Source: Patescibacteria group bacterium
GTDB taxonomy: Bacteria; Patescibacteriota; Minisyncoccia; Phycocordibacterales; UBA12079
Direction of reading: 5' to 3'
Length of the DNA stretch: 64,000 bases
Assembly (NCBI GenBank): GCA_043800905.1
Contig: JAZDMO010000007.1
Coordinates: 1,627-65,626 of the forward strand
This document shows positions 18,918 through 60,558 of the stretch, in pieces. Both the position numbers and the translations under genes were made by a program. The notes under the pieces were generated by a model, which saw only the letters and a program-made list of their open reading frames with translations, ran no database searches and was not told the DNA's origin. Positions within the stretch are counted from its first letter, which is position 1; each line of letters starts with the position of its first letter.

Positions 18918-18984
18918 ATTAATTTTTTAAGAAATTTAAGGTTTTTAATAACATAAATAATTATTATTTTCTTCTATTATTTAC

Positions 18985-19022: not shown

Positions 19023-19028
19023 TCCTTT

Positions 19029-19132
19029 CTCGCAATGACGGTCCGCTTAGGGCGGACCGTCATTGCGAGGAAAAAATTAAGCCTCAAAAGTTTTAAAACT
19101 TTTGAGGCTTAATTTTTGACGTGGCAATCCAG
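19029..19132. repeat. palindromic repeat element (ctcgcaatgacggtccgc..gcggaccgtcattgcgagg + aagcctcaaaagttttaaaacttttgaggctt + gacgtggcaatccag)
   Basis: Two perfect hairpins in series. Same family as 12755-12843 and 31203-31302. Confidence 0.6.
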
Positions 19133-19225
19133 TAAAAATTTAAGTCTTTAAATCTAACCGAAACTATTTTTCAGATGGAAGGGTTTTGTTTTAATGTTCT
19201 GGTGTTTTAATGCTATAATATTTTT

Positions 19226-20050: not shown

Positions 20051-20055
20051 TCTTT

Positions 20056-20631: not shown

Positions 20632-20651
20632 AAGTCAAAAAACATTAAAGC

Positions 20652-31404: not shown

Positions 31405-31440
31405 TAATGTTGGTTTAACATTGGTGTGTTGTGTTATAAT
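31405..31440 (+). promoter_or_regulatory. candidate sigma70-type promoter with extended -10 (TGtTATAAT) for the ATPase gene
   Basis: ttggtg (31411-31416) ...18 bp... tgttataat (31432-31440). This lies inside the 5' end of the tracked ORF, so the real start codon is probably downstream (possibly GTG 31450, leaderless). Confidence 0.3.
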
Positions 31441-35581: not shown

Positions 35582-35586
35582 CATAT

Positions 35587-37859: not shown

Positions 37860-37898
37860 TTTTAAATACTGGATACCAAATACTGAATACTATATACT

Positions 37899-39029: not shown

Positions 39030-39035
39030 AAAGAA

Positions 39036-39078
39036 AAGGCCCTACAAGGACGAAACCTTGTAGGGTGATCTTTTCCGT
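39036..39078 (+). terminator. intrinsic terminator
   Basis: aaggccctacaaggacgaaaccttgtagggtgatctttt. Confidence 0.55.
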
Positions 39079-39120
39079 TGGTGATTACTACTATAATATA
39101 CTACTATAATATACAAGTCA

Positions 39121-41225: not shown

Positions 41226-41229
41226 AATA

Positions 41230-43292: not shown

Positions 43293-44444
43293 ATGGAAAA
43301 AGAAACATATTCAAAAAGAATAGCTTTTTATACGATTGCTTTGCATAGCGGTGGTGGTGAAAGAGTGCTTTTGGATTTGGCACAGGGATTTGTGGAAGAC
43401 GGTTTTAAGGTGGATTTGCTTTTATTTCGTCGCGAAGGTTCGTTAAAAGATAAAGTAGACTCTAGAATAAATATTATTGAACTAGAATCTTCTCGGATTG
43501 CTTTTTCTATTTTCCCAATAATAAAATATCTGAGAGAAAAAAAACCTTTGTTTATTTTAGGAACCTCCGAGCATGCTAACTTGATTTTAATTTTAGCTAA
43601 AATGATTTCTATGACTAAGACAAAAATTTTTGTTAGAGTTGGAATGACTTTTTCTGATTTATTTAAGCAGTATAAAAATAAACGAGACAGATTAATCCCT
43701 TTTTTGATTAAATTTTTGTATCCCTATGCGGATAAAATAATTGCTAATTCTCAAAATGTAGCTTTTGATTTAGAAAGGGTTTCTAAAATTCCAAAAAATA
43801 AAATACAGGTTATTTATAATCCAAAGTTTATTTCAGAGATAGAAAAAAGAGCAGTTCAGGGAGAGTGGAAATATTCTGATAAATTTACTATTTTGGCTAT
43901 TGGAAGATTACAAAAACAAAAAGATTTTGAAACCTTAATTAAAGCTTTTTCTTTAGTAAAACAAAAAATAGATGCTCAACTAATTATTTTAGGGGAGGGA
44001 GGGGAAAAAGATAATTTAAATAATTTAATTTATGAATTGAATTTGAGAGGATATGTTTATTTGGTTGGTTTTGTGGAAAATCCTTATTTGTATATGAAAA
44101 ACGCAGATGTTTTTGTTTCCTCTTCACTTTGGGAAGGCTTTTCTAATGCTCTAGTAGAAGCCGGTATTTTATCTTTGCCGATTATCGCTACTGATTGCGG
44201 ATCCGGGTCAAGGGAATTATTGGCCCCTCGCTCTGACTTTAATAAAACCTTAGAAAAAGGTAAAATAGAATATGTACAAAATGGAATCTTGGTAGCAAAA
44301 CAAGATATAGAAAAAATAGCGGAAGCTATTATTTGTCTTTTTGAGGATGAAGTTTTAAGAAAAAAATATTCAGAAAGAATTCAAAAACAAAGTCAAAAAT
44401 TTGAAATAAAGAAAATATTAGAAGAGTATAAAAAATTAATTTAA
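43293..44444 (+). CDS. glycosyltransferase family 4
   Basis: FVSSSLWEGFSNALVEAGILSLPIIATDCGSGSRELL. Confidence 0.7.
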   Translation: MEKETYSKRIAFYTIALHSGGGERVLLDLAQGFVEDGFKVDLLLFRREGSLKDKVDSRINIIELESSRIAFSIFPIIKYLREKKPLFILGTSEHANLILILAKMISMTKTKIFVRVGMTFSDLFKQYKNKRDRLIPFLIKFLYPYADKIIANSQNVAFDLERVSKIPKNKIQVIYNPKFISEIEKRAVQGEWKYSDKFTILAIGRLQKQKDFETLIKAFSLVKQKIDAQLIILGEGGEKDNLNNLIYELNLRGYVYLVGFVENPYLYMKNADVFVSSSLWEGFSNALVEAGILSLPIIATDCGSGSRELLAPRSDFNKTLEKGKIEYVQNGILVAKQDIEKIAEAIICLFEDEVLRKKYSERIQKQSQKFEIKKILEEYKKLI

Positions 44445-44445
44445 A

Positions 44446-45117
44446 GTGAAAGTATTTATATTAAAATTAATAGTAAAATACAGAAAATTAGAAAGTATAT
44501 TCTTGTGGTTGTTAAAAGATATTACTGTAAAAGTTCATGATGTAAGAATTAAAACCCATATTACTGATATGTCAGATGCTCAAACTTTTAGGGAAATATT
44601 TTTAAAAGGAGAATATGATAGAGAATTAGGAACTCCAAAAACAATTTTAGACTTAGGTTCTAATGTTGGTTATTCAATATTATTTTTTAAGGCAAAATAT
44701 CCGGATGCTGTGATTTGTGGATATGAGGCAAACCCCGAAACTTTTAAAAAATTAAAAAGAAATGTGGGCCATTTAAATAATGTAAAGATTTTTAATAAGG
44801 CCATAAGTGACAAAAACGGTTTTGAAAAAATGTATTTAGGTAGTAGTTCAGCATCATCTTCTTTAGTGGATAGATTTGATGAAAATTTTCCTACAGCGCA
44901 AGTAGAATGTATAGAGTTACCCAAGCAAGATTTTGATTTAATTAAATTTGATATAGAGGGAGGGGAACATAAGGTTATAAAGAACCCAACAAATACTAAA
45001 TATATTATAGGAGAGGTTCATTATGATTTAGGGAGTGGATTTAAATTAGATAATTTTGATTTAAAAATTATTAAAATATCAAGGTACCGAGAAGTTGTAT
45101 GGGGTTATCTTAAATAA
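44446..45117 (+). CDS. FkbM-family methyltransferase
   Basis: ILDLGSNVGYSILFF...GYEANPETFKKLKRN...IKFDIEGGEHKV, the FkbM pattern. The true start may be the internal ATG near 44569. Confidence 0.6.
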   Translation: MKVFILKLIVKYRKLESIFLWLLKDITVKVHDVRIKTHITDMSDAQTFREIFLKGEYDRELGTPKTILDLGSNVGYSILFFKAKYPDAVICGYEANPETFKKLKRNVGHLNNVKIFNKAISDKNGFEKMYLGSSSASSSLVDRFDENFPTAQVECIELPKQDFDLIKFDIEGGEHKVIKNPTNTKYIIGEVHYDLGSGFKLDNFDLKIIKISRYREVVWGYLK

Positions 45118-45756
45118 ATGATCAAAATTAAAATATATAAATCAAAAGAAAAGTTAATTAAAGATAAAATTTCTAAAGATGATGTAGTTTTGGATGTGGG
45201 TTTTTGGGGGCAGAATACGAATATAGATAGTAAAGATTGGGTGCATAAAATTTTATTATCTCAGAGTAGTAATGTTTTTGGTGTTGATTTAAATTTCGAT
45301 GGTGGTCGATTGAGAAATCTTGGAAATTATAGAAAACAATCAGCTGAAAATTTTGATTTTGATAAAAAATTTGATGTAATTTTTGCCGGAGATTTAATTG
45401 AGCACCTTTCAAATTTAGGTTTATTTTTGGATTCTTGTAAGAGAAATTTAAAAGATGAAGGAACATTGATAATTACTACCCCAAACGCTTTTGGTCTTTT
45501 TAATATAATGGAAAAACTTTTAAAAAAAGAGCCAAGTGTAAATAGTGATCATACTGTCTATTTTAATTTTATAGTTCTTAAAAAATTATTAGAAAAGAAT
45601 GGCTGGGAAGTTACAGAAGAAAGTTATTTAGATGATGTGTGGCCTAAATATAGACAAAGTCTAAAAAGAAAATTTCTCTATTTGATTTATAAATTTTTTA
45701 ATTTTTTTACTGATAAGTTTGTGGAAAATCTAGTAATTATTGTTAAAAAAAAATGA
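45118..45756 (+). CDS. class I SAM-dependent methyltransferase
   Basis: VLDVGFWGQ (motif I), FDVIFAGDLIEHLSN (motif II/III), TPNAF. Confidence 0.6.
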   Translation: MIKIKIYKSKEKLIKDKISKDDVVLDVGFWGQNTNIDSKDWVHKILLSQSSNVFGVDLNFDGGRLRNLGNYRKQSAENFDFDKKFDVIFAGDLIEHLSNLGLFLDSCKRNLKDEGTLIITTPNAFGLFNIMEKLLKKEPSVNSDHTVYFNFIVLKKLLEKNGWEVTEESYLDDVWPKYRQSLKRKFLYLIYKFFNFFTDKFVENLVIIVKKK

Positions 45757-46475
45757 AAAATAAAGTTGTAATTTATACAGCCATTTTTGGCGGAAAAGAT
45801 AACTTGATTGAACCGGAATTTATTCCTGAAGGATGTGATTTTGTGTGTTTTACTGATTCAGATTTTGTTTCGGGTGTTTGGGAAGTTAGAAAAGTAAAAC
45901 CTGAGTTTGAAGATCCAAACAGAAGCGCAAAAATTTACAAAATTTTGCCTCATAAATATTTTCCAGAATATGAAATTAGTATTTGGATTGATGGAAATAT
46001 GTTGGTGAAAGGGGATGTGAGTGAGTTAATAAAAAAATATTTAAAAGATGTTAACTTTTCAGCTTTTGACCATACCCCCTATAGAAAATTTTGGAAAAAG
46101 TTTTTTCCTTTGAAATTCGAAGAATATCGTGATTGTGTTTACGATGAAGCAAGATTCATTTTAGAGCTTGGTAAAAAGAGAGTGAAATATAAAGATGATC
46201 CTGAATTAATTAAATTTCAAATAGAAAAATATCGTAAAGAAAATTATCCCAAACATAGTGGTTTAATAGTGGGGATGGTTTTGTTGAGAAGACATAATGA
46301 AGAAGATGTCATACAAACAATGGAAGCTTGGTGGCAAGAAATTCAAAATGGAAGTTGTAGAGACCAATTAAGTTTTAATTATGTCGCTTGGAAAAATAAT
46401 TTTAATTTTTGTTATATAGAACAAAGTTCTAGAAAAAACAGGTGGTTTCTACATACACAACACAGGTTAAAATAG
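45753..46475 (+). CDS. DUF616/TOD1-like putative glycosyltransferase
   Basis: VIYTAIFGGKDNL...CFTDSDF...IWIDGNM. Confidence 0.45.
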   Translation: MKNKVVIYTAIFGGKDNLIEPEFIPEGCDFVCFTDSDFVSGVWEVRKVKPEFEDPNRSAKIYKILPHKYFPEYEISIWIDGNMLVKGDVSELIKKYLKDVNFSAFDHTPYRKFWKKFFPLKFEEYRDCVYDEARFILELGKKRVKYKDDPELIKFQIEKYRKENYPKHSGLIVGMVLLRRHNEEDVIQTMEAWWQEIQNGSCRDQLSFNYVAWKNNFNFCYIEQSSRKNRWFLHTQHRLK

Positions 46476-46484
46476 AGCTTTAAA

Positions 46485-47342
46485 TTAAATTTTAAGTATC
46501 TTTTTTAAGATGAGTTTAATTTTCTTTTTAATGCTTGTTTTTTGCCCATAAAACCATTTGTTTTCTCTTTCTGCATATAGTCCTGCATTCAAATATTTTT
46601 TAATATTAATTCTTTCTTTATATTTTTTCCTTTGCTGTTTTAATCTTTCCCCTGTTATGTTTGTGTGGAAGACTGTCCAGTCTTCATCTTCTTCCTTCAT
46701 CAAAGTATAAACTTTGTGTTTTTGAATGTAATTTTCCCAAGCTACCTCGACAGTTCTTCTTTGGTTTGGTTCAGGATTATTTTCTCTAAAACCGGAATCA
46801 ATAAAATCACCTGCATATTCTCGCATAGCTTTTGTGTGAGTGTCTCTTTTTATAAGCGCGAAGTTTTCGCTTAATCTGTCGCTGAAATAATAACCGTCCC
46901 AAGCATTATGATGTTTTGCTTTATAGTTAGAAGAACCGCCAAAGGCAAAAATTTCTCCTTTATTAAGAAAGGAAATTGCTTTTTCTAACCAGCCATCATT
47001 TTTTTGACAATAAGGGAGAGTATCAAATTTAAAAAATAACAAATATTTTTTTCGTGACAAATTGGCAACATGATATTCTCGTATATGAGCAAAATCTTTT
47101 CCTTTTTCTGGATGATTTTCTTTATTTAATGAGAGAGTATCTATTAATCCTTGATCTAATAATTCAAGATAGGCTTTTTTTGTGTTTTGATTGCTTCCTG
47201 CGTCCATAATAATAACTTCTGCTGGTTTTCCACCAAGGAATTTAAACCAGTCCAAAAGAACATCTTTTAAATTTTCATGATTGCCATAATTGGCACAAAC
47301 CATAGAAATTTCATTTAGAATATTTTGTTTATTTTCGCTCAT
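46485..47342 (-). CDS. hypothetical protein, possibly a GT-A-like nucleotide-sugar transferase
   Basis: 285 aa. The VIIMDAGSNQNT segment is only weakly reminiscent of the GT-A DxD region. No firm family. Confidence 0.3.
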   Translation of the reverse strand: MSENKQNILNEISMVCANYGNHENLKDVLLDWFKFLGGKPAEVIIMDAGSNQNTKKAYLELLDQGLIDTLSLNKENHPEKGKDFAHIREYHVANLSRKKYLLFFKFDTLPYCQKNDGWLEKAISFLNKGEIFAFGGSSNYKAKHHNAWDGYYFSDRLSENFALIKRDTHTKAMREYAGDFIDSGFRENNPEPNQRRTVEVAWENYIQKHKVYTLMKEEDEDWTVFHTNITGERLKQQRKKYKERINIKKYLNAGLYAERENKWFYGQKTSIKKKIKLILKKILKI

Positions 47343-47349
47343 AAGTTTA

Positions 47350-48249
47350 TTATTTTTCTATCCATGCAAATAATTTGGTTTTGGTTTTGTATATTGTGTA
47401 TTTCGGAACAAACAATTTTATTTTACTTTCAATTATTTCAGGGTCGTCTGGGAGGTGATAGGTACAAATAGCTATTTTCGGTTTATACTTTTGAATGGTA
47501 TTTCTCGCCCCATCTAGAAATTTTCTTTCAGCTCCCTCTATATCTATTTTTATAAAGTCTATTTTAGTTATAGTTTGATTTTTTTCAATAAAAGAATCTA
47601 GAGTAATTTGTTGTACTTCTTCAATTTCTGTATTTTTCCCTTGTCTTTCGCTAGAGCTACTAACCAATTTATCTTTATTTACAAAAAAATTAATATTTGT
47701 ATTGATATCACCCAGTGCATATGGGAGATATTGAATATTAGTTATATTATTTGTTTTTATATTTTTGTTTAAAAAAATACCCGTTTCTTTTATTGGTTCA
47801 AAGGAAAAAATTTTTCCACCACCTCCTATTTGTTGTGACGCAAATATAGAAAAAAGTCCTATATTTGATCCTGCATCAATGACAACATCATCTTTTTCTA
47901 AAAATACTCCGTTTTCTTCATAGGGGCCTTCAAAATCTAAAAGTAAATTATTATTTAATATGTTCTTTTTTATAAATTCATTTTTAGACAGTAATATTGA
48001 AACAATATCACCCACAGGAAGGTGATTATTGTAAAAAAAAGTATAACCCATACAGACAAAGTTTTTTTCGTTCTGATTATAATCAATGAGATTTCTTTTT
48101 TTTAAAATATTAGGAATCCAATTTCTTTTTTTTAATCTTTTAAAAACAAGATTAGGAGATATTGAGTAAATAATAATAAAAATATTTTTCCCCCAGGATT
48201 CTTTAATAAGAAAATTTATTCTTGGAATTATCTTTTTTAATAAATTCAT
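47350..48249 (-). CDS. FkbM-family methyltransferase
   Basis: VIDAGSNIGLFSIFASQQIGGGGKIFSFEP and IKIDIEGAERKFL. Confidence 0.6.
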   Translation of the reverse strand: MNLLKKIIPRINFLIKESWGKNIFIIIYSISPNLVFKRLKKRNWIPNILKKRNLIDYNQNEKNFVCMGYTFFYNNHLPVGDIVSILLSKNEFIKKNILNNNLLLDFEGPYEENGVFLEKDDVVIDAGSNIGLFSIFASQQIGGGGKIFSFEPIKETGIFLNKNIKTNNITNIQYLPYALGDINTNINFFVNKDKLVSSSSERQGKNTEIEEVQQITLDSFIEKNQTITKIDFIKIDIEGAERKFLDGARNTIQKYKPKIAICTYHLPDDPEIIESKIKLFVPKYTIYKTKTKLFAWIEK

Positions 48250-48328
48250 AAAATTATTATATCATAAAGTTGGGTTCGTTGAGAAAACCTTTATTTTAAG
48301 TGCATATTTGTTTATACTTTAGTTAAAT

Positions 48329-49249
48329 ATGTCTTTAAATCCTAAAATTAGTGTTATTATTCCAACTCACAATAGACCTGAATTATTGGAAAGGGCTATT
48401 CAAAGTGTTTTATGTCAAACATTTCAAGACTTTGAAATTATTGTTATTGATGATGGTTTAGAGAAACGAGCGGATAAAATTATTAGCCAAATTTCAGATG
48501 AAAGAATCCAATATATTCAGAATATTAAAAATTTAGGGGCTTCTGCTTCAAGAAATGTTGGTATTAACAAAGCGAAGGGTAAATACATTACTTTTTTAGA
48601 TGATGATGACGAATTCTATCCAGAGAAAATAGAAAAACAGTATCAAATTATTGAAGCTAGTTTTGAAAAAATAGATTTTGTGTATTGTATTGTTGATGTT
48701 TATTCTCAACAGAGTGGTGATTTTATTTACACACAAAAACATGATTTCAAAGAAGGTGTGCAATCTTTTTTTGAAGAAGCTCTTTCTTTGAAAATGGCAG
48801 TAGCTACCCCTTCAATTTTTTGTAAAAAGAAGAAGGTTTTGGAAATAGGGGGTTTTGATGAAAATTTTCCTAATGCAGAAGATAAAGATTTTTTTATAAG
48901 ATTGTCAAAAAATAGTCAGGGATTTTTTATAAATCAGTCTTTGGTCAAGGTTAATTTTTTTGATGAAAAAGAAAATCGTTTAAGTGGAAATTTAAAATCT
49001 AGAATTATAGGTCGTGAAATGTTAATAAAAAAATATAATACTGATTTATTTAAAAGACCAAAGATTTTAGGTAAACATCTTTTTCTATTAGCTTTTCTTT
49101 ATCAAGAAGATGGTAATTTAAAGAAAACTCAGGAATTGTTTTTTCAGGCGTGGAAATTAGATAAAACAAACTTTATTTTTTTGAAACAGATTTTAAAGAA
49201 TTTATATCTAAGATTTTTTCAAAAGACATTTAATAAAAAATCTAGATAG
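48329..49249 (+). CDS. glycosyltransferase family 2
   Basis: ISVIIPTHNRPELLERAIQSVLCQTFQDFEIIVIDDG...DDDD. Confidence 0.75.
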   Translation: MSLNPKISVIIPTHNRPELLERAIQSVLCQTFQDFEIIVIDDGLEKRADKIISQISDERIQYIQNIKNLGASASRNVGINKAKGKYITFLDDDDEFYPEKIEKQYQIIEASFEKIDFVYCIVDVYSQQSGDFIYTQKHDFKEGVQSFFEEALSLKMAVATPSIFCKKKKVLEIGGFDENFPNAEDKDFFIRLSKNSQGFFINQSLVKVNFFDEKENRLSGNLKSRIIGREMLIKKYNTDLFKRPKILGKHLFLLAFLYQEDGNLKKTQELFFQAWKLDKTNFIFLKQILKNLYLRFFQKTFNKKSR

Positions 49250-50254
49250 AGTTTTCCAGTTTCGCCATTCTTTTAAATCTAATTTTCTTCGTAAAGATGA
49301 CTTCCAAAATTTTTTCCAAATTACCCAGTTTTGATTTGAATTTATACTGCATATTTGTAGCCAGCGTTGAGAAATCATTTCTGAAAATATAGGTTCTTTA
49401 TAAAAATTTGTTATTTTATTTTGAGCTATTAATTTAGATAACCAAAGTTCTTCTTTTTTGAGAAAATCATGGGTTTTATAATTTTCTGGCTTGTATACCT
49501 CTCCATGAATTAAGAGATTTTCTTCTGTTGGTGTAATGTCGAGATTATCTTTCAGTAGGGTGGTTCTTAATTGTGCAATTGCCATTTTTTGTTTTGCAGA
49601 TTGAATTTTACCTGTGTTAGAATCATGAATTCTATATTGAATTAAAGCTTTTTTGATGTTTGTTATAGGAAAATATTTAACAGCATTGCTCCATAAACCA
49701 TAATCTTCTGCATGTTCGTAATTAATGTTATATCTTAAATTATATTTTTCTAGAATATTTTTTCGGGTTATTATTGATGGATGAATTATTATGCATCTAA
49801 ATAACAGAGCAATTTTGATTTTTTCTGGATGAGAAATGGGTTTTGAATATTTATTTATTTTTTTATTTCCTATAATTATTTTTGCCCAAGATCCAGCAAT
49901 ACCAATGTGTGGGTTTTTCTTCATGAATTTTATTTGAATTTCTAGTCTTTTAGGGAAACTAATATCATCTGCATCCATTCTTGCGATGTATTCCCCCCTT
50001 GCTTGATCAAGTCCTTTGTTTAACGATTTAATGACCCCTAAATTAACCTCGTTACTGATGAGTTTAATTCTAGAGTCATTATAGGATTTGATTATTTTTT
50101 CGCTGTTATCGGTTGAGCCATCATTGATAATTAAAAATTCAAAATCAGTGAAGGTTTGGTTAAGAATACTTTCAATTGATTTTTTTAGATATTTTTCACT
50201 ATTATAAACAGGCATTAAGACTGTTATTTTGGGGTTTTTGATATTATTATCCAT
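49208..50254 (-). CDS. glycosyltransferase family 2
   Basis: ITVLMPVYNSEKYLKKSIESILNQTFTDFEFLIINDGSTDNS...ARMDADD. Confidence 0.75.
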   Translation of the reverse strand: MDNNIKNPKITVLMPVYNSEKYLKKSIESILNQTFTDFEFLIINDGSTDNSEKIIKSYNDSRIKLISNEVNLGVIKSLNKGLDQARGEYIARMDADDISFPKRLEIQIKFMKKNPHIGIAGSWAKIIIGNKKINKYSKPISHPEKIKIALLFRCIIIHPSIITRKNILEKYNLRYNINYEHAEDYGLWSNAVKYFPITNIKKALIQYRIHDSNTGKIQSAKQKMAIAQLRTTLLKDNLDITPTEENLLIHGEVYKPENYKTHDFLKKEELWLSKLIAQNKITNFYKEPIFSEMISQRWLQICSINSNQNWVIWKKFWKSSLRRKLDLKEWRNWKTLSRFFIKCLLKKS

Positions 50255-50450
50255 GTTGTTTTAATTTATAGTAATTATTAAAGCATTTTTTAACAATGAC
50301 AGCAATTTTGTTTGAATTCAGGAATTAATTTGTGGGATGAGTCTTAATATTTTTGAGTAAAATATATTGCTATTTTGGGATAAAGGGTGTAGTTTGATAG
50401 GTAGACTGTTCTTTAATTTCAAAATAAAAAAACTAAAAGAGGAGGCAAAA

Positions 50451-51752
50451 ATGAGGAAAAGAATATTACTTATAGATCCGCCCTTTCAAAGATTTATGGG
50501 ATTTTCCAAAACAGGAATTCCTCTCGGGCTGTTGTCTTTGGCAGGAGTTTTGAAAAAAAGAGGTCATTGGGTTGAAGTTCTGGATTCGGATTATAATCCA
50601 AATGGAACCCCTTACCCTTTTATGGATAAAATAGGCCACTATGATGAATACCTTGATAATTTAAATAATGGAAACCATTTAATTTGGGAGGACATTTCTT
50701 CCCAGATTGAGAAATCAAAACCAGATGTGGTTGGTATTTCTTTTATTTCTACCAAATTAAGGAGCGGATTAAGGGTCGCGCAAATTGCAAAAAAGATGGG
50801 TGTAAAAAGAATTGTGGGAGGGGGTCCTCATGTAATAATTCGTCCAGATGATGTTGCTGGCAAAGGTAGTGCTGTTGATTATTTAATTATTGGAGAGGCT
50901 GAAGAACAATTGGATGTTTTTGAAGGAAGCCCTTCTAATAGCGTTATAAAAGCAAGCAGAATAAAAAATTTAGATTCATTGCCTTGGATGGCCAGGGAAA
51001 GTCTTGTGGGGATTCACCATTATCGACCTTCTGATCTTGGTTTTATGATAACCTCAAGAGGGTGTTCTGGGTCTTGCAATTTTTGCTGTTCTGAGAAATT
51101 GTGGGGCAAAAAAGTCAGATTCAGGAGTATTCAAGATGTCATTGCAGAAATGGTTTATGTTAACAAAAAATATGGTACCAAAAAGTTTTATATGACAGAT
51201 GATACTTTTACAATGAATAGAAAAAGAGTTTTTGAATTTACTGACGGGCTTCTTGGAAAAAAATATGAATGGGGTTGTTTGACTCGAGTAGATAGAATAA
51301 ATAGTAAAATGCTTGAACAAATGGTTTTGTCTGGTTGTAATATGATTAAAGTCGGTGTTGAGAGTGGAAGTCAGAGGGTATTAAATTTAATGAACAAGGG
51401 AACAACCCTCAGTCAGGCAAGAGCTGTTGCAAAGTTGCTTAATGATTTTTCTGTAACTTGGCTAGCTTATATAATGGTTGGAGTTCCTGGGGAAACCTCT
51501 GAAGATGTTGATGCCACTATGAAGTTTGTCGATGAAATCAAACCCACTTATGTTAGTGCTTCAATTTATACTCCGTATGTTGGAACTGGTTTTTACAAAA
51601 ACGGTTACGACCATTTATTAAAAGGGAAAATTATGGGCGATTATGCTATCGAAGAAGCAAATCACCACAGTTTAAAAGTTATAGCGGGAGATGTTCCTCG
51701 TGAAAAGATTGTTGAATTCATGAGATTTGCGGATAGTTATAATTCACCCTAG
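50451..51752 (+). CDS. B12-binding-domain radical SAM enzyme (class B radical SAM methylase-like)
   Basis: The N-terminal RILLIDPP...GIPLGLLSLAGVLKKRGHWVEVLD is a B12-binding Rossmann. It is followed by a CSGSCNFCC (Cx3Cx2C) radical SAM cluster motif. The start is placed at the ATG after the aggagg SD (frame of the tracked ORF). Confidence 0.7.
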   Translation: MRKRILLIDPPFQRFMGFSKTGIPLGLLSLAGVLKKRGHWVEVLDSDYNPNGTPYPFMDKIGHYDEYLDNLNNGNHLIWEDISSQIEKSKPDVVGISFISTKLRSGLRVAQIAKKMGVKRIVGGGPHVIIRPDDVAGKGSAVDYLIIGEAEEQLDVFEGSPSNSVIKASRIKNLDSLPWMARESLVGIHHYRPSDLGFMITSRGCSGSCNFCCSEKLWGKKVRFRSIQDVIAEMVYVNKKYGTKKFYMTDDTFTMNRKRVFEFTDGLLGKKYEWGCLTRVDRINSKMLEQMVLSGCNMIKVGVESGSQRVLNLMNKGTTLSQARAVAKLLNDFSVTWLAYIMVGVPGETSEDVDATMKFVDEIKPTYVSASIYTPYVGTGFYKNGYDHLLKGKIMGDYAIEEANHHSLKVIAGDVPREKIVEFMRFADSYNSP

Positions 51753-51901
51753 TGAGTATTTTTGAGAGGGGTCCTTTTATTTTTTTATTTCGAATTATTA
51801 TTGTATTAATGAGTTTTTTGAGACAAAGCGAGATTGGTTTATTCAATCTCGCTTTTCAATTTTCGTAAAATTTTAACAAAAAACTGTTTTTAAAAAATAA
51901 C

Positions 51902-52807
51902 CTAGATTTTCATCCAAGTTAAGGGTATTGGATTATATTTATTTTTTTCTAAATCAGTAAACCACTTTTCAGGGGCTATTACTATTTTGTCAGGGTTTGG
52001 GTTTAACCAAGCTCCCCACCAACTAAAAGAACTGTTAGCAATAACATTGTGTTTACACAAGCTCATCAATATTAAATCTTCATAATTTTTGTTTTCTTCA
52101 ACAAAGGTAATAGAGAATTCGGTTTTAAAATTTTCTTTTGCCCACCAGATATCATCAGAAAAAACAAAGATTTTTAGATCTTTGAATTTTTCTGAAATTT
52201 TTTGGATAGCGTTTTGATAATAATCTAAAGAACAGATTTCATAAATTTTGTTTGTTTTTTTATTATTGATATAATCGCTTCTGCGAATATGGATAGAAAT
52301 TGAATTTGTGTTTTCAATAATCCCTTTTAATTTTTGATTTTTAATTGAGAATTCATTTTTTAAAGTAAATTCTTCACGAATAATATTTTTAATATTTTTT
52401 CCGTTCGAGATAAATCCGTCTTGGGCGGAAAAATATTTTTCGTTTTGCCAATAACCATCTAGATAAATATCTTTGTTGGAATTTTCTAGTATTTTTTTAT
52501 TAAAATTATTCGGCTTTTCAGTAATATAAATTGAATTATCTGAAAAAAATAAATTATAAAAAAGATATTTCCAATTATTTATTTTTTTATATTTCTTTAA
52601 CTTTTTTATTTCGTCATTGTTCGCTATCTTTTCAACTATATTAAAAATTCCTAATTCATATTTGCGAGGAGTCGTGTTTTTTTTAATGTGATTAAACCAA
52701 GAGATATCTAATTTTAATTCGGTTTTATTTTTTTCAGCCAAAGCACGTCCAATTGCATATTGGAACATTTGATTTCCTAAACCGCCTGTTAATTTAACAA
52801 TAATCAT
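51902..52807 (-). CDS. glycosyltransferase family 11 alpha-1,2-fucosyltransferase (FutC-like)
   Basis: GGLGNQMFQYA at the N-terminus, HIRRSDY, CKHNVIANSSFSWWGAWL, KIVIAPEKWF: all four GT11 hallmarks. Confidence 0.7.
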   Translation of the reverse strand: MIIVKLTGGLGNQMFQYAIGRALAEKNKTELKLDISWFNHIKKNTTPRKYELGIFNIVEKIANNDEIKKLKKYKKINNWKYLFYNLFFSDNSIYITEKPNNFNKKILENSNKDIYLDGYWQNEKYFSAQDGFISNGKNIKNIIREEFTLKNEFSIKNQKLKGIIENTNSISIHIRRSDYINNKKTNKIYEICSLDYYQNAIQKISEKFKDLKIFVFSDDIWWAKENFKTEFSITFVEENKNYEDLILMSLCKHNVIANSSFSWWGAWLNPNPDKIVIAPEKWFTDLEKNKYNPIPLTWMKI

Positions 52808-52808
52808 A

Positions 52809-53393
52809 TTATTTATTTTTCAAACCGAGAGTCTCTGCGGCTGTTGTTTTTTGCCTGAATCCTACCACTTTTGCTGGGGCCCCGACAGCAATAGCATATT
52901 CGGGAATATCTTTGGTTACAACACTGCCAGCTCCGATAACGGCGCCTTTTTCTATGGTGACACCGTCTAGTATAGATGAATTTCCTCCTATCCAGACTTC
53001 GTCTTTTATTATGGTTCCTTTCATTTCGTTTCCGCTTGTTTTTATTGACTCTGTTGTTTTTATGTTGTGGTTAGCCCCGGGGATATTTACATTTGGGCCT
53101 ATTGAAACATTATTTCCTATCTTTACTTTTCCACAAATAAAGTTATTAACCCCTAAATCACAATTATCTCCAACAGTTAATTCAATAGGTGATATGAAAC
53201 AATTATGGTAAATCGTTATGTTTTTACCAAATTTAATTTTGTTTTTGTTCCTTATAAAAGTATTGTTGAAAAGCGTAATAGGGAGTTCTATTTTTTCAAA
53301 TTTATTTTTGTTTAAAAAATAAAAAAATAAACCATAAAGTTTTTGTTTGTTCTTAGAATATTTATATAAATAAAACAATCTTTTTCTTAACAT
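52809..53393 (-). CDS. hexapeptide-repeat (left-handed beta-helix) O-acetyltransferase
   Basis: Repeated [LIV]G..xx[IV] hexads (IGNNVSIGPNVNI, IGGNSSILDGVTIEKGAVIGAGSVV). Confidence 0.65.
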   Translation of the reverse strand: MLRKRLFYLYKYSKNKQKLYGLFFYFLNKNKFEKIELPITLFNNTFIRNKNKIKFGKNITIYHNCFISPIELTVGDNCDLGVNNFICGKVKIGNNVSIGPNVNIPGANHNIKTTESIKTSGNEMKGTIIKDEVWIGGNSSILDGVTIEKGAVIGAGSVVTKDIPEYAIAVGAPAKVVGFRQKTTAAETLGLKNK

Positions 53394-55006
53394 ATTGATA
53401 TAATATCATTTTTAACCTTGAATTTTAAGTTTTTGTTTTTATTTTTAATAAATTCTTTTAGTTTGCTTATTGTTGGATAATCATTTTCCCCCACAAAACA
53501 TCTTGCGTCATCAATGAGAATAACATGGTTTTTAATTGGATGATTAAAAATAGCAGTTAACTCTTTGAAGATTGGTGTGTTTAAATTACCTTTGGCGGTA
53601 ATATCTCCAGAATAATGACCGTCAAGCCAAAAAAGGCAAGGTTCATTTATCTCTTTTAAAATACTAGGAAGTATTTCTCCGCTATCCCCGTTTAAAATTA
53701 AAATATTGGTGTTTTGTTTAAACTTATCAACGGCTTTTCTATATAAAGAGATGTCTAATTCAATTGAATAAATCTTTTTAAACATTTTTTCCATTGCCTC
53801 CACCATTTTACCTTTATAGGTGCCCGTTTCTATGAAAGTTTTTATTCTATATTTTCTGGCATATTTTTTTATATTTTTTTGTTTGATTACGTGGGGAGGG
53901 GGGGTTGGTTTGCCTCTAGTTAACCAAATTAAAATAATTAATTGATTTTTTAGATAATTAGCAAATTTATTAAAAAGTATTTTTTTTACAAAAAGTTTAG
54001 ATATTAATTTTATTTTTAATAAAAATAGTTTTAGTTTTTTTAACATAATTTCTTTAATCGTGGGCGGATAGTTATTTTCTGGATTAATTTCTAAAATCTC
54101 ATACCGCAGAGGTTCACCACTCGATGTTTTTTTAATAATTTTTGTAATCATGGGAAAAAGATTATATTCGTCCAAAATCAATTCTTTCGATTGGATAATT
54201 TCTCCTTTCGATTTTTCATAAGTATTATTTTTTAGGGTGTCTTCAATAATTTTTATAGCTTCTCTTGGTTTTTTTATATCAATTACTGACAATGAATTTT
54301 TAGGAAAATATTCGTAAATATTTGAACACCCATAATAAAGTGGGTAACTTTCTCCTAAAAATGCATCAGAGAGTTTTTCTGACCAATAATCTCTATTAGA
54401 ACTATTTTCTAGAACAATATGATATTTATATGGGGCAATAATATCCCATTTATCAGTGAAATCTTTTATATCTTTACCCAAAATATCTATTTTATTTCCA
54501 AAATGTTTTTTTAATTTATTTATGAATTTTAATCTTTGACGGTGTCCTTTTGTGGAGTTTTTATTTGATGAAATTACTGAAATCAACCTACTTTTCTTTA
54601 TTTCTTGGGAACTTTTTAAATTGTCGTAATTTTTAGAAAAGTTTCCCCATGTGTTTATTTCTTTATTATACTCAGCACCAATCATCCATGGCAATGACTC
54701 TTGTTTGTTTAGTATATTTGGATGTTTGATGTTTCTTTGTGACGTAATAATAGTTTCAAATTGTTTTAAAAAATTAGAGTTATATTTTTTTATGTTTTTC
54801 GGTTCCGTTGTAATGAAAATTGTGTTTTTTTTAGGACAAATACAGCTCTCTTTTTGTACTAAACCGCCCAAAATAATCCAGTAATCACATTTTTCAATGT
54901 TTTTGTTTATTGAAAAATGGTAATTCTCCCAGATCCCTTTCGAATTTGGTGTCTGTCTTTCTATAGGCCATTCTGGGGAAGCTGTTGTTAATTTAATTTT
55001 TTGCAT
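53387..55006 (-). CDS. bifunctional: N-terminal GT10 alpha-1,3/4-fucosyltransferase-like domain fused to a C-terminal methyltransferase-like domain
   Basis: The N-domain has YKYHIVLENSSNRDYWSEKLSDAFLGESYPLYYGCSNIYEYFPKNSLSVIDI (GT10 FxLxFENSxxxDYxTEK..P.Y.G motif). The C-domain (approx. residues 340-539) has FIETGTYKG...LFWLDGHYSG...ILIDDARCF and is paralogous to ORF 54993-55709. Confidence 0.55.
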   Translation of the reverse strand: MQKIKLTTASPEWPIERQTPNSKGIWENYHFSINKNIEKCDYWIILGGLVQKESCICPKKNTIFITTEPKNIKKYNSNFLKQFETIITSQRNIKHPNILNKQESLPWMIGAEYNKEINTWGNFSKNYDNLKSSQEIKKSRLISVISSNKNSTKGHRQRLKFINKLKKHFGNKIDILGKDIKDFTDKWDIIAPYKYHIVLENSSNRDYWSEKLSDAFLGESYPLYYGCSNIYEYFPKNSLSVIDIKKPREAIKIIEDTLKNNTYEKSKGEIIQSKELILDEYNLFPMITKIIKKTSSGEPLRYEILEINPENNYPPTIKEIMLKKLKLFLLKIKLISKLFVKKILFNKFANYLKNQLIILIWLTRGKPTPPPHVIKQKNIKKYARKYRIKTFIETGTYKGKMVEAMEKMFKKIYSIELDISLYRKAVDKFKQNTNILILNGDSGEILPSILKEINEPCLFWLDGHYSGDITAKGNLNTPIFKELTAIFNHPIKNHVILIDDARCFVGENDYPTISKLKEFIKNKNKNLKFKVKNDIISIC

Positions 55007-55709
55007 AAATGATTTTTCTCAGTATCTTTTTAATCTTGCGATAATTAAAGCTCGCTTTTTGTCTGAACGGCTCTTTGTATGATTTTGATTTGATATATTT
55101 TATATTATCACACGGGACTATCCTTATAATATCGTTAGAAACTTTAAAATTGATATTACTATTTATTTTTTTTATAAAAGAGAATAGTTCTTTAACAGTT
55201 GGGTATTCATTTTCTCCCGTAAAACATCTTGCGTCATCGATAAGGATTATATGATTTTTAATACGATGATTTAATATAATTTCTAGTTCTTTTAAAATCG
55301 GGGTATTAAGATTACCTCTTGCTGTTATTCCTCCAGAGTAGTGGCCATCTAGCCAAAAAAGTGTGGGTTGATATAAAGTGGGAGTAACCACTTTTAAAAT
55401 ATCAGAACTATCTCCTTGAAGTATTGTTATATGGGTATTATAAATGAATTTTTCTTTTGATTTTTTATATAGATCTTTGTCTAATTCGATTGATATTAAT
55501 TTTTTGAATTTGTTTTTTAAAGCTTCCACTGTTTCTCCTAAGAAAGTACCGGTTTCAATAAAAATATCAATAGAAAATTCCTTAGCATAGTTTTCTATTG
55601 TTTGCCTTTTTATGGTATAGAGGGGAGGACTGATTGGCTTGCCAATAATAAATTTATATAGTTTATTATCAATAGTGTTTAATATCTTTTTAATTTGTTT
55701 TTTTACCAT
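54993..55709 (-). CDS. standalone paralog of the methyltransferase-like domain (TylF/MycF-like fold suspected)
   Basis: FIETGTFLGETVEAL...LFWLDGHYSGGITARGNLNTPILKELEIILNHRIKNHIILIDDARCF. Collinear with the C-domain of the upstream gene over approx. 190 aa. Confidence 0.5.
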   Translation of the reverse strand: MVKKQIKKILNTIDNKLYKFIIGKPISPPLYTIKRQTIENYAKEFSIDIFIETGTFLGETVEALKNKFKKLISIELDKDLYKKSKEKFIYNTHITILQGDSSDILKVVTPTLYQPTLFWLDGHYSGGITARGNLNTPILKELEIILNHRIKNHIILIDDARCFTGENEYPTVKELFSFIKKINSNINFKVSNDIIRIVPCDNIKYIKSKSYKEPFRQKASFNYRKIKKILRKIIYAKN

Positions 55710-56975
55710 TTAGCTATATTTATCTGTTGAATAATCTAAAACCGTAGCAATTTGTCCTTCACTTGACCCTTTAAATATTAGTGATTTTGGGTTGTTTACA
55801 TCAGTTATTTCAAAATAAATATCTTTTTTATGATCAAAAGATTCTATGCAAGGTTCGTGGATAGCAGTAGTGAAATTATAATTTCCTACATTAAACAAAA
55901 ATGACGGGATCTCAACAACGGTTGCGTATTTTCCTGGAGAATAGGTTTTTAGTTTTTTTGTTTTGTCTGATTCAGAAGATTTTAATAGTAGTGTATTTGA
56001 TGAGTAAAATAAGATAGAAAAAAGAGCATTCTCAACCTTTTTAAGAACTTTGTATTCTGTTTTAATAAAAAAGTTTTGGCTAATAGGTATATTGGTTGTT
56101 GGCTTTTTATTTTTATCTAGAATGGAAACTCTTGTGATTTGTGCTTTCTTTTTTTGATCAACTTCAAATTCAGTAACGGCTTTTTTTTCTTTTATCTTGT
56201 TTAAATAATGACTGATAACTTTTTTCGTTTCTCCGATCATTTTTATTTTTCCGTTTTCGATTAGAATACACCTTTTGCAAAGTTTTTTAACGGCTTCTAG
56301 GTTATGGCTTACGAATAGAATAGTTCTTCCTGCTTGGCTGGTGACCTCGTCCATTTTACCAAGGCATTTTTTTTGGAATTCTGCGTCGCCGACAGCAAGA
56401 ACTTCATCTACCAAAAGAATATCAGGTTCCATATGAGCTGCCACAGAAAAACCAAGACGCACTAGCATTCCAGAAGAATATCTTTTTACGGGCGTATCAA
56501 TAAATTTTCCTACTCCTGAAAATTCTACGATAGCATCAAATTTTTCAGCAATTTCTTTTTTAGTCATTCCTAAAATAGCTCCATTAAGAAAAATATTTTC
56601 TCGTCCAGTTAATTCAGAATGAAAACCGGTCCCAACTTCTAGAAGAGAGGCCACTTTTCCGTGCATTCTGATTTCTCCTGTGGTTGGTGGTGTGATTCCT
56701 GTTAAAATTTTAAGTAAAGTAGACTTACCCGCTCCATTGGCTCCGATAATTCCAACAGCTTCTCCTGCTTGAATTTCAAAATCAATGTCTTTTAATGCCC
56801 AAAATTCTTCATTAGTATTTCTCCCTGTAATTTGTTCAGCTTTCTTTTTTAGAAAAGAAAAAGGTTTTTTAGCTATATTGGTTAAAACATCGCGCATTGC
56901 AACATAACTACCTCGTTCATGAGTGATATTGTATTTTTTTGAAATGTTTTTAACAATTATTATTGGTTTATTCAT
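55710..56975 (-). CDS. wzt: ABC transporter ATP-binding protein of the glycan-export (Wzt/TagH) type with a C-terminal glycan-binding domain
   Basis: Walker A GANGAGKST, signature YSSGMLVRL, Walker B ILLVDE. An extra approx. 160-aa C-terminal beta-rich domain is typical of Wzt_C. Confidence 0.8.
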   Translation of the reverse strand: MNKPIIIVKNISKKYNITHERGSYVAMRDVLTNIAKKPFSFLKKKAEQITGRNTNEEFWALKDIDFEIQAGEAVGIIGANGAGKSTLLKILTGITPPTTGEIRMHGKVASLLEVGTGFHSELTGRENIFLNGAILGMTKKEIAEKFDAIVEFSGVGKFIDTPVKRYSSGMLVRLGFSVAAHMEPDILLVDEVLAVGDAEFQKKCLGKMDEVTSQAGRTILFVSHNLEAVKKLCKRCILIENGKIKMIGETKKVISHYLNKIKEKKAVTEFEVDQKKKAQITRVSILDKNKKPTTNIPISQNFFIKTEYKVLKKVENALFSILFYSSNTLLLKSSESDKTKKLKTYSPGKYATVVEIPSFLFNVGNYNFTTAIHEPCIESFDHKKDIYFEITDVNNPKSLIFKGSSEGQIATVLDYSTDKYS

Positions 56976-56987
56976 AATATTTTATAT

Positions 56988-57815
56988 TCATACAACGTCT
57001 GCAAAATATCTTTCGGTTTTTTTGAAAAAATAAAATCCTATTAATAAGACTATTAGACAAACAGTTCCTGAAATTGTTAAAAGTGTCCAATTTATTGGGG
57101 CATTTCCTAATAGAGCTGCACGAGAGGCTTTAATTACTCCAGTCATAGGATTTAAGGCCAAAAGCCATGAATATTTTCCTACAATACTAGCTGGATAAAT
57201 TACTGGGGTGACAAACATCATTATGGAAATGAAAAAAGGTAAAGCATAACGAACATCGCGATATTTAACATTTATAGAAGCAAGAAATAGACCACCTCCT
57301 ACTGAAGCCATAAAAGTAATAAATAGAAGTAGGGGAATAATTAAAAGCCCAATTAAATTTGGTGTGTATTGATAATAAATCATCATTCCAACTAAAATAG
57401 TGGAGGCTATGAAAAAATCAACAAATTTTGTGATTGTAGATGAAATAGGTAAAATTATTCTTGGAAAGTAAACCTTAGTGATAATTCCTTGATTAGAAAT
57501 TAAACAATTACTTACATCTGATAAAGAAGCAGAAAAAAATTGCCAAAATAAAAGTCCAGAGTAAACAAAGATTGGGTAAGGAATTCCGTCTGAAGGCATT
57601 TTAGCAAAGTTTCCGAAAAATATGGTGAAAACAACCATCGTCATGAAAGGTTGAAAAAGAGCCCATAAAATTCCTATGGCTGTTTGTTTGTAGCGAACTT
57701 TAATATCTCTCCAAGTTAGGAAATACAATAATTCTTTGTATTGCCAGATTTCTTTTAAATCGTTAAAACTAAAAGTTTTTTTCGGTTTAATTATGGTTGT
57801 CTTTGAGTTATACAT
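56988..57815 (-). CDS. wzm: ABC-2 type polysaccharide export permease
   Basis: Six TM helices, 275 aa, immediately upstream of and co-oriented with the ATPase. Confidence 0.75.
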   Translation of the reverse strand: MYNSKTTIIKPKKTFSFNDLKEIWQYKELLYFLTWRDIKVRYKQTAIGILWALFQPFMTMVVFTIFFGNFAKMPSDGIPYPIFVYSGLLFWQFFSASLSDVSNCLISNQGIITKVYFPRIILPISSTITKFVDFFIASTILVGMMIYYQYTPNLIGLLIIPLLLFITFMASVGGGLFLASINVKYRDVRYALPFFISIMMFVTPVIYPASIVGKYSWLLALNPMTGVIKASRAALLGNAPINWTLLTISGTVCLIVLLIGFYFFKKTERYFADVV

Positions 57816-60554: not shown

Positions 60555-60558
60555 TTTC

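Follow-up and report, generated by a model that had tools for sequence, protein, structure and literature searches.

A radical SAM (rSAM) gene situated within a glycan-assembly locus of a Patescibacteria group bacterium is, as judged from its sequence, real and intact and codes for a canonical two-domain enzyme. Its 433-aa product has an N-terminal B12-binding domain ahead of a radical SAM core, an intact cluster motif together with SAM motifs, conserved cobalamin (Cbl) motifs and a conserved glycan context. By analogy with characterised enzymes, we rate the chance as about even that it is a functional class B (cobalamin-binding) rSAM enzyme dedicated to the surrounding cell-surface glycan pathway. 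The relevant features of the analysed stretch of 64,000 nucleotides, here called the window, are compiled in Table 1.

Table 1. Features of the rSAM gene, its product and the surrounding locus (positions in the window; conservation as number of family members out of 36)
Feature	Position	Strand	Evidence
Glycan-assembly locus, ~23 kb, low GC 0.288 (rSAM gene excluded)	34712..57815		Pfam, NCBIfam, GC
Upstream neighbour, opposite strand: GT2 glycosyltransferase	49208..50254	-	Glycos_transf_2, 3.6e-39
Shine-Dalgarno GAGGAGG	50439..50445	+	5 nt ahead of ATG 50451; read directly off the sequence
B12-binding-domain radical SAM gene, 433-aa product	50451..51752 (stop codon included)	+	ORF, Pfam, NCBI identity, AF2
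N-terminal Rossmann-type B12-binding domain, Pfam PF02310, aa 22-155	50514..50915	+	56.7 bits, E=2.8e-15, cutoff 32.1
Downstream Cbl-binding motif region G95-I-S97-F-I99-S-T-K102-L-R-S105, beta3 to alpha3	50733..50765	+	definition of PMC9204698
GG motif of beta4, G124-G125-P-H127	50820..50831	+	G124, G125 36/36; H127 35/36
GE motif at the start of alpha5, G148-E149-A-E151	50892..50903	+	G148 35/36, E149 36/36, E151 36/36
Radical SAM core, Pfam Radical_SAM PF04055, aa 199-360	51045..51530	+	79.2 bits, E=5.4e-22, cutoff 29.5
[4Fe-4S] cluster motif C205-SGS-C209-NF-C212 (CxxxCxxC)	51063..51086	+	invariant, 36/36
Terminator-like 13-bp hairpin with subsequent T-rich tail in the gap separating the convergent rSAM and GT11 genes	51825..51855	+	consensus scan only
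Downstream neighbour, opposite strand: GT11 (alpha-1,2-fucosyltransferase family)	51902..52807	-	Glyco_transf_11, 1.7e-30
Wzt: ABC ATPase with C-terminal glycan-cap-binding Wzt_C	55710..56975	-	ABC_tran 6.7e-22, Wzt_C 5.8e-11; NCBIfam
Wzm: ABC-2 permease of glycan exporter	56988..57815	-	ABC2_membrane, 1.6e-17

The open reading frame spans positions 50367..51752 of the forward strand, and translation from the ATG at 50451 yields the 433-aa product (MRKRILLIDPP...). This ATG follows a Shine-Dalgarno element, agrees with the N-termini of 35 homologues and is the start of a deposited 433-aa NCBI protein (P0001) with 100%/100% identity to the window protein. Therefore, we take it as the true start. 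An earlier reading, made from the sequence only, had given exactly this ATG-to-stop frame as the gene. It had also assigned the DNA to the CPR, in agreement with the closest homologues, which belong to Paceibacterota, and with the label of the deposited protein (Patescibacteria group bacterium). In the public record the gene already carries a generic annotation.

An N-terminal Rossmann-type B12-binding domain in front of the barrel is the class I architecture of class B radical SAM enzymes (PMC12931638). The window protein shows this arrangement both in the order of its Pfam domains and in the AF2 model, where beta/alpha repeats occupy aa 4-150 and the B12-binding domain precedes the radical SAM barrel. 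However, a match to this domain alone is no proof of cobalamin binding, as AprD4 and ArsL demonstrate (review PMC12931638), and for this reason the Cbl motifs were examined beyond the Pfam match. Three such motifs (a downstream GxSxL-type motif, GG and GE) are known from class B enzymes of solved structure (PMC9204698), and we counted their conservation over a family set of 36 members. All three (G95-x-S97-x-I99, G124-G125 and G148-E149) are conserved in 35-36 of the 36. Within the downstream motif, G95, S/T97, K102 and S105 are each found in 36/36, position 99 is hydrophobic (I/V/L/M) likewise in 36/36, and the invariant Lys102 sits beside Thr/Pro101, which lines up with the lower-axial Trp76 of TokK. 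G95-x-S97 is in register with A70-x-S72-x-Y74-x-W76 of TokK, and the GxSxL-type and GG motifs as a whole are in register with Cbl-bound TokK and MgmA. When cobalamin is bound base-off, its DMB/ribose tail lies in a pocket made by the GG motif; here the family consensus aGGPHv aligns with AGGPHV of TokK. The GE motif is in register with GEGE of MgmA, and the match to GEGE of TokK was read from the raw alignment. Against the family profile the Cbl domain of TokK gives a significant alignment of 26.3 bits, whereas the N-domain of AprD4 reaches 0.9 bits, i.e. no alignment. By these sequence comparisons the window protein is a putative class B (cobalamin-binding) enzyme.

The CxxxCxxC motif lies inside a partial TIM-barrel which is modelled at high confidence, as expected for the radical SAM superfamily. 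Three further stretches of the barrel, FYxxDDTFT, G302-x-E304-S-G306 (GxESGS) and G344-x-P346-x-E348 (GxPGE), are conserved in at least 34 of the 36 members and probably represent SAM-binding motifs, namely a GGE-like motif of beta2, the ribose motif and a GxIxGxxE-like motif of beta5. Thus, the identification as a B12-binding radical SAM enzyme in the sequence-only reading holds: the profile search returned the B12-binding domain as well as a radical SAM core with aligned CxxxCxxC, neither of them missing, both domains score above the curated Pfam cutoffs and the cluster motif is invariant.

The AF2 model of the 433-aa protein has a pLDDT of 92.3 and a pTM of 0.91. In a structure search with this model, AprD4 was the top neighbour, MgmA, TsrM and CysS scored almost equally, TokK was also close, and OxsB was among the matches. 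Since AprD4, which is without cobalamin, and the B12-dependent methylases are equally close, the fold is uninformative on cofactor use.

Membership in known families was judged by the curated equivalog cutoffs of NCBIfam, and the window protein stays below every one of these. The best profile is ApyD (NF050148) with 137.4 bits against a cutoff of 750; lower scores are those of HpnJ (TIGR03471; 126.3 against 577.6), BchE (TIGR02026; 118.6 against 481.35), the ladderane rSAM (TIGR04072; 114.7 against 360), MgmA (TIGR04014; 97.3 against 360) and AprD4 (NF033070; 82.6 against 500, with a match covering only the barrel, aa 199-397). A KedN5-type C-methyltransferase (35 bits against 700) and the PhpK family were rejected on their curated cutoffs as well. 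Nine further proteins, four from the close family and five neighbours with ~38% identity, likewise stay below these cutoffs.

That the gene is embedded in a glycosylation locus, as had been proposed from the sequence, is borne out by the glycosyltransferase, methyltransferase, epimerase and Wzm/Wzt genes surrounding it. According to Pfam the locus codes for glycosyltransferases of the types GT4 (six), GT2 (two), GT47-like, GT9, GT11, GT10 and TOD1/MUCI70-like, and in addition for two FkbM and other methyltransferases, a hexapeptide acetyltransferase and an SDR epimerase/dehydratase. With a Wzm permease, a Wzt ATPase and at least 12 glycosyltransferase genes it has the make-up of a Wzm/Wzt-dependent locus. 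The ORFs scanned at 34.7-57.8 kb gave no Glycos_transf_4 or Bac_transf match that would indicate an initiating phosphoglycosyltransferase of the WecA/WbaP type; this enzyme may be encoded elsewhere in the genome. A type IV pilus cluster is located within the same window.

The window protein belongs to a narrow family of ~430 aa, which is small and uncharacterised. Its members occur in Paceibacteria, in DPANN archaea and on two phage contigs. The phage members were found in Logan contigs; a scan of IMG/VR gave only distant B12-rSAMs of 25-27% identity. The close family is represented by 12 distinct loci, and in 11 of them, the window included, the rSAM gene is part of a glycan-assembly cluster. 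Therefore, the link to glycans is no one-off and a sugar modification is probable. The immediate neighbours in these 11 loci are genes for glycosyltransferases, sugar methyltransferases or sugar-nucleotide enzymes, although the loci are organised very differently, and the DPANN archaeal homologues adjoin STT3/AglB protein-glycosylation genes. Two unannotated neighbours, unk289 and unk326, recur beside the rSAM gene in loci L003, L005, L010 and L011 (38-64% identity) and carry a DxD-like motif (ILEDDCLP), by which we read them as a putative GT-A glycosyltransferase. Since neither the window nor L001 contains them, they do not qualify as an obligate partner. A class I methyltransferase (Methyltransf_23) adjoins the rSAM gene in L003, L004, L005 and L011 and in L006 is fused into the neighbouring TPR-GT4 protein. 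In the window and in L001 it is 5-9 kb away, so this association is suggestive only.

By analogy with the characterised class B methylases, the [4Fe-4S] cluster at CxxxCxxC would reductively cleave SAM, and the resulting 5'-deoxyadenosyl radical would remove a hydrogen atom from one of the unactivated carbons of a sugar or sugar substituent. The substrate radical would then be methylated by methylcobalamin, which the N-terminal Rossmann domain would hold base-off, and a second SAM would re-methylate the cobalamin. Wzm/Wzt would export a heavily methylated and probably fucosylated glycan containing the resulting C-methylated sugar, either branched or chain-extended. Cobalamin binding, methyl transfer and a substrate such as a nucleotide sugar, a lipid-linked intermediate or the polymer terminus are what we infer here; C-methylation or another radical-mediated sugar modification, as suggested in the sequence-only reading, fits all of the evidence.

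With regard to cobalamin supply, no btu or cob genes for uptake or synthesis were found among the window ORFs scanned. A Tetrapyrrole (Corrin/Porphyrin) methylase match at 28900-29589 is not a corrin gene; its product is RsmI, the 16S rRNA C1402 2'-O-methyltransferase (244 bits for TIGR00096, cutoff 168). Cobalamin synthesis is not known from CPR or DPANN organisms or from phages. These points on supply, the top structural rank of AprD4, the closeness of the HpnJ and BchE profiles, the absence of the TokK Trp residues and the failure to reach any curated family all speak against the preferred reading of a cobalamin-binding methylase.

Some of these points lend themselves to a cobalamin-binding enzyme that is no methylase and rearranges a sugar by radical chemistry. 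In line with proposals for HpnJ, OxsB and BchE, it would contract the ring, cyclise the sugar or form a C-C bond, and cobalamin would serve as electron sink or second radical initiator. HpnJ, which is assigned to the ring contraction of hopanoid-linked glucosamine, and BchE are among the best NCBIfam profiles for the window protein and are the top ones for the ~38%-identical neighbours, OxsB matches structurally, and Trp residues specific to the methylase TokK are missing. We nevertheless consider such a rearrangement unlikely. Both profile scores are far under their cutoffs, position 99 is hydrophobic while it is polar in OxsB (Asn186) and TsrM (Arg69), which are non-radical-methylating (PMC12931638, PMC9204698), and methylases predominate strongly among the class B enzymes characterised so far (PMC12931638). 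Quite improbable, in our view, is a cobalamin-independent enzyme similar to AprD4, in which the Rossmann domain would be a mere scaffold and a sugar diol would become dehydrated, deoxygenated or epimerised. It would make the cofactor-supply problem of a CPR organism disappear, but the AprD4 profile is missed by a wide gap, the N-domain of AprD4 does not align with the family profile while the Cbl domains of TokK and MgmA do, and residues of the Cbl motifs conserved in 35-36 of 36 members are hard to explain for a ligand-free scaffold.

Another possibility concerns the substrate, which could be a lipid carrier, a pilin or S-layer glycoprotein acceptor or a peptide, the glycan context then reflecting co-regulation only. 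The best NCBIfam profile is that of a RiPP enzyme, ApyD, a type IV pilus cluster shares the window and STT3/AglB genes stand beside the archaeal homologues. But the ApyD score is a small part of its cutoff, precursor-peptide genes and RiPP machinery are absent among the annotated rSAM neighbours in all loci, and sugar-related immediate neighbours persist in 11 of 12 loci in spite of their very different organisations. A substrate other than a sugar therefore appears very unlikely to us.

Should the preferred reading, a class B enzyme of the glycan pathway, be right, the family would mark surface glycans of CPR bacteria, DPANN archaea and some phages as carrying a radical-installed change, probably a C-methyl sugar. 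It would also provide direct genetic evidence for a dependence of such organisms on imported cobamides. Characterised class B rSAM enzymes come almost exclusively from pathways for antibiotics, cofactors, lipids and RiPPs. Literature searches combining Cbl-rSAM with Patescibacteria/CPR, O-antigen, AglB/N-glycan or phage capsid glycosylation yielded nothing relevant. We tentatively propose, as a possibility with the odds rather against it, that the enzyme of the ~430-aa family truly depends on cobalamin, works as a sugar C-methyltransferase or tailors sugars in another way, and is horizontally shared by CPR, DPANN and phages. It would then be the first class B rSAM enzyme shown in surface-glycan assembly (Wzm/Wzt O-antigen-like and STT3/AglB N-glycan), and these ultra-reduced symbionts would have to scavenge cobamides of hosts or neighbours largely for an unusual C-branched sugar of the surface or virion. 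Two handles follow: the enzyme could be studied as a candidate in vitro, and its gene could serve as a marker of B12 dependence in minimal-genome symbionts. If the protein instead worked without cobalamin in the manner of AprD4, it would provide a useful second case of a degenerate B12 domain.

Compared with known systems, AprD4 (PDB 6FD2) is a radical SAM 1,2-diol dehydratase of apramycin biosynthesis and so belongs to an antibiotic pathway, in contrast to the surface-glycan context found here. It does not bind cobalamin (PMC12931638). It is the top structural neighbour, and its N-domain does not align with the window family. MgmA/QCMT (PDB 9CCB), the B12-dependent glutamine C-methyltransferase of methyl-coenzyme M reductase, acts on a protein and lacks the W274-x-C276 motif of the window family. 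HpnJ and BchE, among the highest-scoring curated profiles, are both non-methylases, and the proposed substrate of HpnJ is a lipid-linked amino sugar; genes for hopanoids or bacteriochlorophyll were not found in the window.

The cobalamin-dependent C-methyltransferases of the TokK/ThnK and CysS types (PDB 7KDX/7KDY, 9N1B) resemble the window protein in the Cbl domain, in GGPH and GEGE and in the fold. However, they are about 625-680 aa long with C-terminal cap domains, which the window protein does not have, and their substrates are carbapenem or polyketide intermediates. In the window family Thr/Pro101 takes the place of TokK Trp76 and Ser214 that of Trp215, thus the TokK-specific methylase residues are not reproduced. 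The nearest functional analogy is to GenK, GenD1 and Fom3 (PMC12931638, PMC4340712), a likeness which is drawn from the literature. These class B enzymes act on aminoglycoside sugars or small polar substrates and methylate unactivated sp3 carbons in a cobalamin-dependent manner, GenK and GenD1 on sugar rings (PMC12931638, PMC4340712). They are found in actinomycete antibiotic clusters, whereas the window family resides in surface-glycan loci of the Wzm/Wzt or STT3 type.

An ORF scan placed the gene within a longer open reading frame (see table). Judged from the sequence, the ATG at 50451 is its true start, since a GAGGAGG element, read directly from the sequence, precedes it by a 5-nt spacer, the start position is identical in 35 out of 35 aligned homologues, and the 433-aa product matches with 100% identity over 100% of its length a deposited protein from an 82-kb contig ('MAG: radical SAM protein [Patescibacteria group bacterium]'). 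Pfam assigns Radical_SAM to aa 199–360 (E=5.4e-22, 79.2 bits, cutoff 29.5) and B12-binding to aa 22–155 (E=2.8e-15, 56.7 bits, cutoff 32.1), and the cluster motif reads C205-SGS-C209-NF-C212. Thus, the sequence-only reading was right in the coordinates, in calling both domains, which score far above chance, and in the CxxxCxxC motif. This anatomy is canonical and the gene is already generically annotated in the public record. What makes it of interest is that a small family common to CPR bacteria, DPANN archaea and phages is so strictly tied to glycan loci.

The enzyme shows every sequence-testable feature of class B radical SAM enzymes with class I architecture, and it falls into none of the curated subfamilies. 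No NCBIfam model came near its curated cutoff; the best was ApyD with 137 bits (cutoff 750), followed by HpnJ (126; 577.6), BchE (119; 481), ladderane radical SAM (115; 360), MgmA (97; 360) and AprD4 (83; 500). Four other family members and five neighbours of 450–500 aa (about 38% identical; Planctomycetota, Brocadiales and Saccharibacteria) likewise matched no model near its cutoff. When 1.84 billion cluster representatives were searched exhaustively with a profile, 22,040 had E<=1e-30; only three of these scored above 540 bits, and the next had 478 bits or less. Therefore, the ~430-aa family is just a minor branch within a very large superfamily. A non-exhaustive scan of species-representative genomes with short peptide patterns placed one Paceibacterota MAG (75%) and five DPANN MAGs (Nanoarchaeota/'archaeon' 61–64%, Woesearchaeota 46%) in the close family (>=46% identity); a virus scan of the same non-exhaustive kind gave only distant B12-binding radical SAM proteins (25–27% identity). 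In the literature searched, no class B enzyme was described from CPR organisms or linked to O-antigen-type or N-glycan assembly. A distant branch of ~450-aa B12-binding radical SAM proteins (36–38% identity) occurs in Saccharibacteria, Shapirobacteria and an unclassified bacterial MAG; an RmlD-like reductase gene always follows, which suggests a nucleotide-sugar substrate for this branch.

The main evidence for function comes from gene context. Glycan clusters account for 11 of the 12 distinct loci (the window among them) despite wholly different organisation, so the enzyme appears to serve glycan biosynthesis. At 75% identity to the window protein (L001/L008), the gene lies between wzt and wzm, together with GT10, GT11, two SDR, a split transketolase and methyltransferases. 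Archaeal loci carry STT3, a phosphoglycosyltransferase, WecG, GT25, FkbM, an RmlC/D fusion and a second radical SAM gene (L003/L023, 63%), or adjoin a phosphoglycosyltransferase, two methyltransferases and STT3 (L004, 66%); the gene sets of L009, L010 and L011, also archaeal (61–64%), resemble them. L005 (47%) has TylF-/TylCIII-type sugar methyltransferases, UbiA, GT2 and GT4 genes and UDP-glucose dehydrogenase. L006 (46%) and L007 (42%) are phage contigs with SU10-type portal and major capsid genes, and the context of L024 (46%) is uninformative.

In both phages a glycosylation module follows the capsid gene immediately and contains the homologue, GT2 genes, SDR epimerases, further radical SAM genes and a gene for a giant TPR-GT4(-methyltransferase) protein. 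In L006 the further radical SAM genes number up to four, and the module also holds a second B12-binding radical SAM gene and a split transketolase. The arrangement suggests that these phages encode glycan tailoring by radical chemistry, to glycosylate the virion or to modify the host surface. By their locus GC contents (0.376 in L006, 0.504 in L007), the hosts are other than the window organism. A protein of ~290–330 aa (38–64% identity) with no Pfam match on record adjoins the radical SAM gene in DPANN loci and L005, and is absent in the window. Its DxD-like motif 'ILEDDCLP' makes it probably an undescribed GT-A glycosyltransferase family.

Coordinates of features in the window and in loci of homologues
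Sequence	Position	Strand	Feature
Window	8145-22219		Complete type IV pilus gene set: PilM-like, PilB-/PilT-type ATPases, PilC, several prepilins with N-methylation motifs, prepilin peptidase
Window	28900-29589		RsmI
Window	31426-34675		VirD4/TraG-like coupling ATPase, then LTD (Lamin-tail)/PKD surface protein
Window	34712-57815		Glycan-assembly locus, ~23 kb
Window	40196-41225		GT4 as two overlapping ORFs (156 aa, 201 aa)
Window	~40625-40632		A8 homopolymer with frameshift
Window	50367-51752	+	ORF containing the radical SAM gene
Window	50439-50445		GAGGAGG
Window	50451-51752	+	Radical SAM gene
Window	51825-51855		13-bp hairpin 3' of the radical SAM gene
Window	53387-55709		GT10 protein (539 aa) with extra methyltransferase-like domain; adjoining 238-aa methyltransferase
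Window	58839-63651		HlyD-type membrane-fusion protein, full-length AcrB-type RND transporter (588 bits)
L006	4207-21213		Phage locus
L007	1284-15053		Phage locus
L003	4149-5018		~290-330-aa recurring protein
L005	9024-10004		~290-330-aa recurring protein
L010	5006-5938		~290-330-aa recurring protein
L010	934-1848		~290-330-aa recurring protein
L011	673-1578		~290-330-aa recurring protein
L012	4290-5111		RmlD-like reductase, distant branch
L013	3581-4396		RmlD-like reductase, distant branch
L016	7376-8257		RmlD-like reductase, distant branch

The window's own locus encodes an SDR epimerase/dehydratase, five intact GT4 and one split by a frameshift, a GT47-like protein, GT9, two GT2, GT11, a TOD1/MUCI70-like protein, a GT10 joined to a methyltransferase-like domain, a hexapeptide O-acetyltransferase, two FkbM and three or more class I methyltransferases, and the exporter pair Wzt (ABC_tran plus the cap-binding Wzt_C domain) and Wzm. 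No gene for an initiating phosphoglycosyltransferase turned up in this stretch. The split GT4 reflects either a mistake in sequencing or assembly or phase-variable switching. The extra domain of the GT10 protein and the adjoining methyltransferase are paralogues, and a 208-aa L001 protein matches them with 69% and 50% identity, which points to a duplicated and fused glycan methyltransferase module. Upstream of the locus lie the pilus cluster (~12 kb away), LigA, a GatA-type amidase, RsmI and a DUF4015 protein; the glycan may be attached to the pilins. The LTD/PKD protein, encoded just upstream, looks secreted. The HlyD and AcrB genes directly follow Wzm/Wzt, and the window ORFs scanned included none recognised as an outer-membrane factor.

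The radical SAM gene, with its own Shine-Dalgarno sequence, is a single plus-strand gene between minus-strand GT2 and GT11 genes, and in L001 it is likewise the lone opposite-strand gene. Its GC content is 0.365, versus 0.288 in the remaining locus and 0.25–0.28 in the immediate neighbours. After other Paceibacteria, the nearest relatives are DPANN proteins (61–66%) encoded beside STT3/AglB, and in a rough neighbour-joining distance tree the Paceibacteria clade is sister to the DPANN clade, with the phage copies on their own branch. Together these features suggest, tentatively since few sequences in the tree bear taxon labels, that the gene entered the glycan locus by horizontal transfer between domains. 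Cobalamin transport, salvage or synthesis genes were absent among the window ORFs scanned. A 'Tetrapyrrole (Corrin/Porphyrin) methylase' Pfam match, the sole 'corrin methylase' family match among them, was ruled out, being RsmI (TIGR00096, 244 bits, cutoff 168). Of further interest is the dependence on imported cobamides that the enzyme would imply for the organisms sharing the family.

With its cluster ligands and SAM-contacting motifs intact, the enzyme is expected to cleave SAM reductively and to abstract a hydrogen. The recurring GT10, GT11, GT25, FkbM, class I methyltransferase and SDR neighbours point to a glycan that would be deoxyhexose-rich and heavily methylated; candidate substrates are a nucleotide sugar, a lipid-linked intermediate or the chain end that Wzt_C recognises. 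A substrate other than a sugar is very unlikely. With a cobalamin site, the default would be the class B methylase cycle, in which methylcobalamin gives its methyl to the substrate radical and a second SAM re-methylates the cobalamin. A cobalamin-dependent rearrangement without methylation, of HpnJ/OxsB/BchE type, is in our view rather unlikely. Position 99 is hydrophobic, as in the lower-face environment of radical methylases, and the TokK-specific tryptophans are not reproduced.

A Pfam B12-binding match is insufficient as proof of cobalamin binding, because AprD4 and ArsL homologues have Rossmann-like domains yet do not bind cobalamin (2026 review, Berteau and colleagues, PMC12931638). The AF2 model (pLDDT 92.3, pTM 0.91, disorder only at aa 384–396) has cobalamin-free AprD4 as top neighbour (31.0, Foldseek TM 0.71), followed by the cobalamin-dependent MgmA/QCMT (28.1, 25% identity), TsrM (26.5), CysS (26.1), TokK (18.0) and OxsB (17.0); the non-cobalamin methylthiotransferases RimO and MiaB also score well. 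As both kinds rank closely, the modelled fold by itself says nothing on cobalamin use. A 2022 review (PMC9204698) defined three binding signatures in solved class B enzymes: a 'downstream' GxSxL-type motif (beta3-alpha3), GG (beta4) and GE at the start of alpha5. The family has G95-x-S97-x-I99, then S100, T101, K102 and S105; G124-G125-P-H127; and G148-E149-x-E151, kept in 35–36 of 36 members, CPR, DPANN and phage sequences included. On sequence grounds, the N-terminal domain is likely to be a real cobalamin site. An AprD4-like dehydration independent of cobalamin would suit the top structural neighbour but appears quite improbable: the family profile aligns to AprD4 via the barrel only (118 bits), its N-domain adding 0.9 bits, whereas its alignment to MgmA spans positions 86–383, and TokK is aligned through the N-domain (26.3 bits, i-E 2.9e-5). 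The N-domain alone as query recovered only TokK (E=0.02) and the isolated cobalamin domain 4Q37 (E=0.15). In TokK, A70-x-S72-x-Y74-x-W76 corresponds to G95-x-S97-x-I99-x-T101 of the family, and 'GGPH' and 'GEGE' match.
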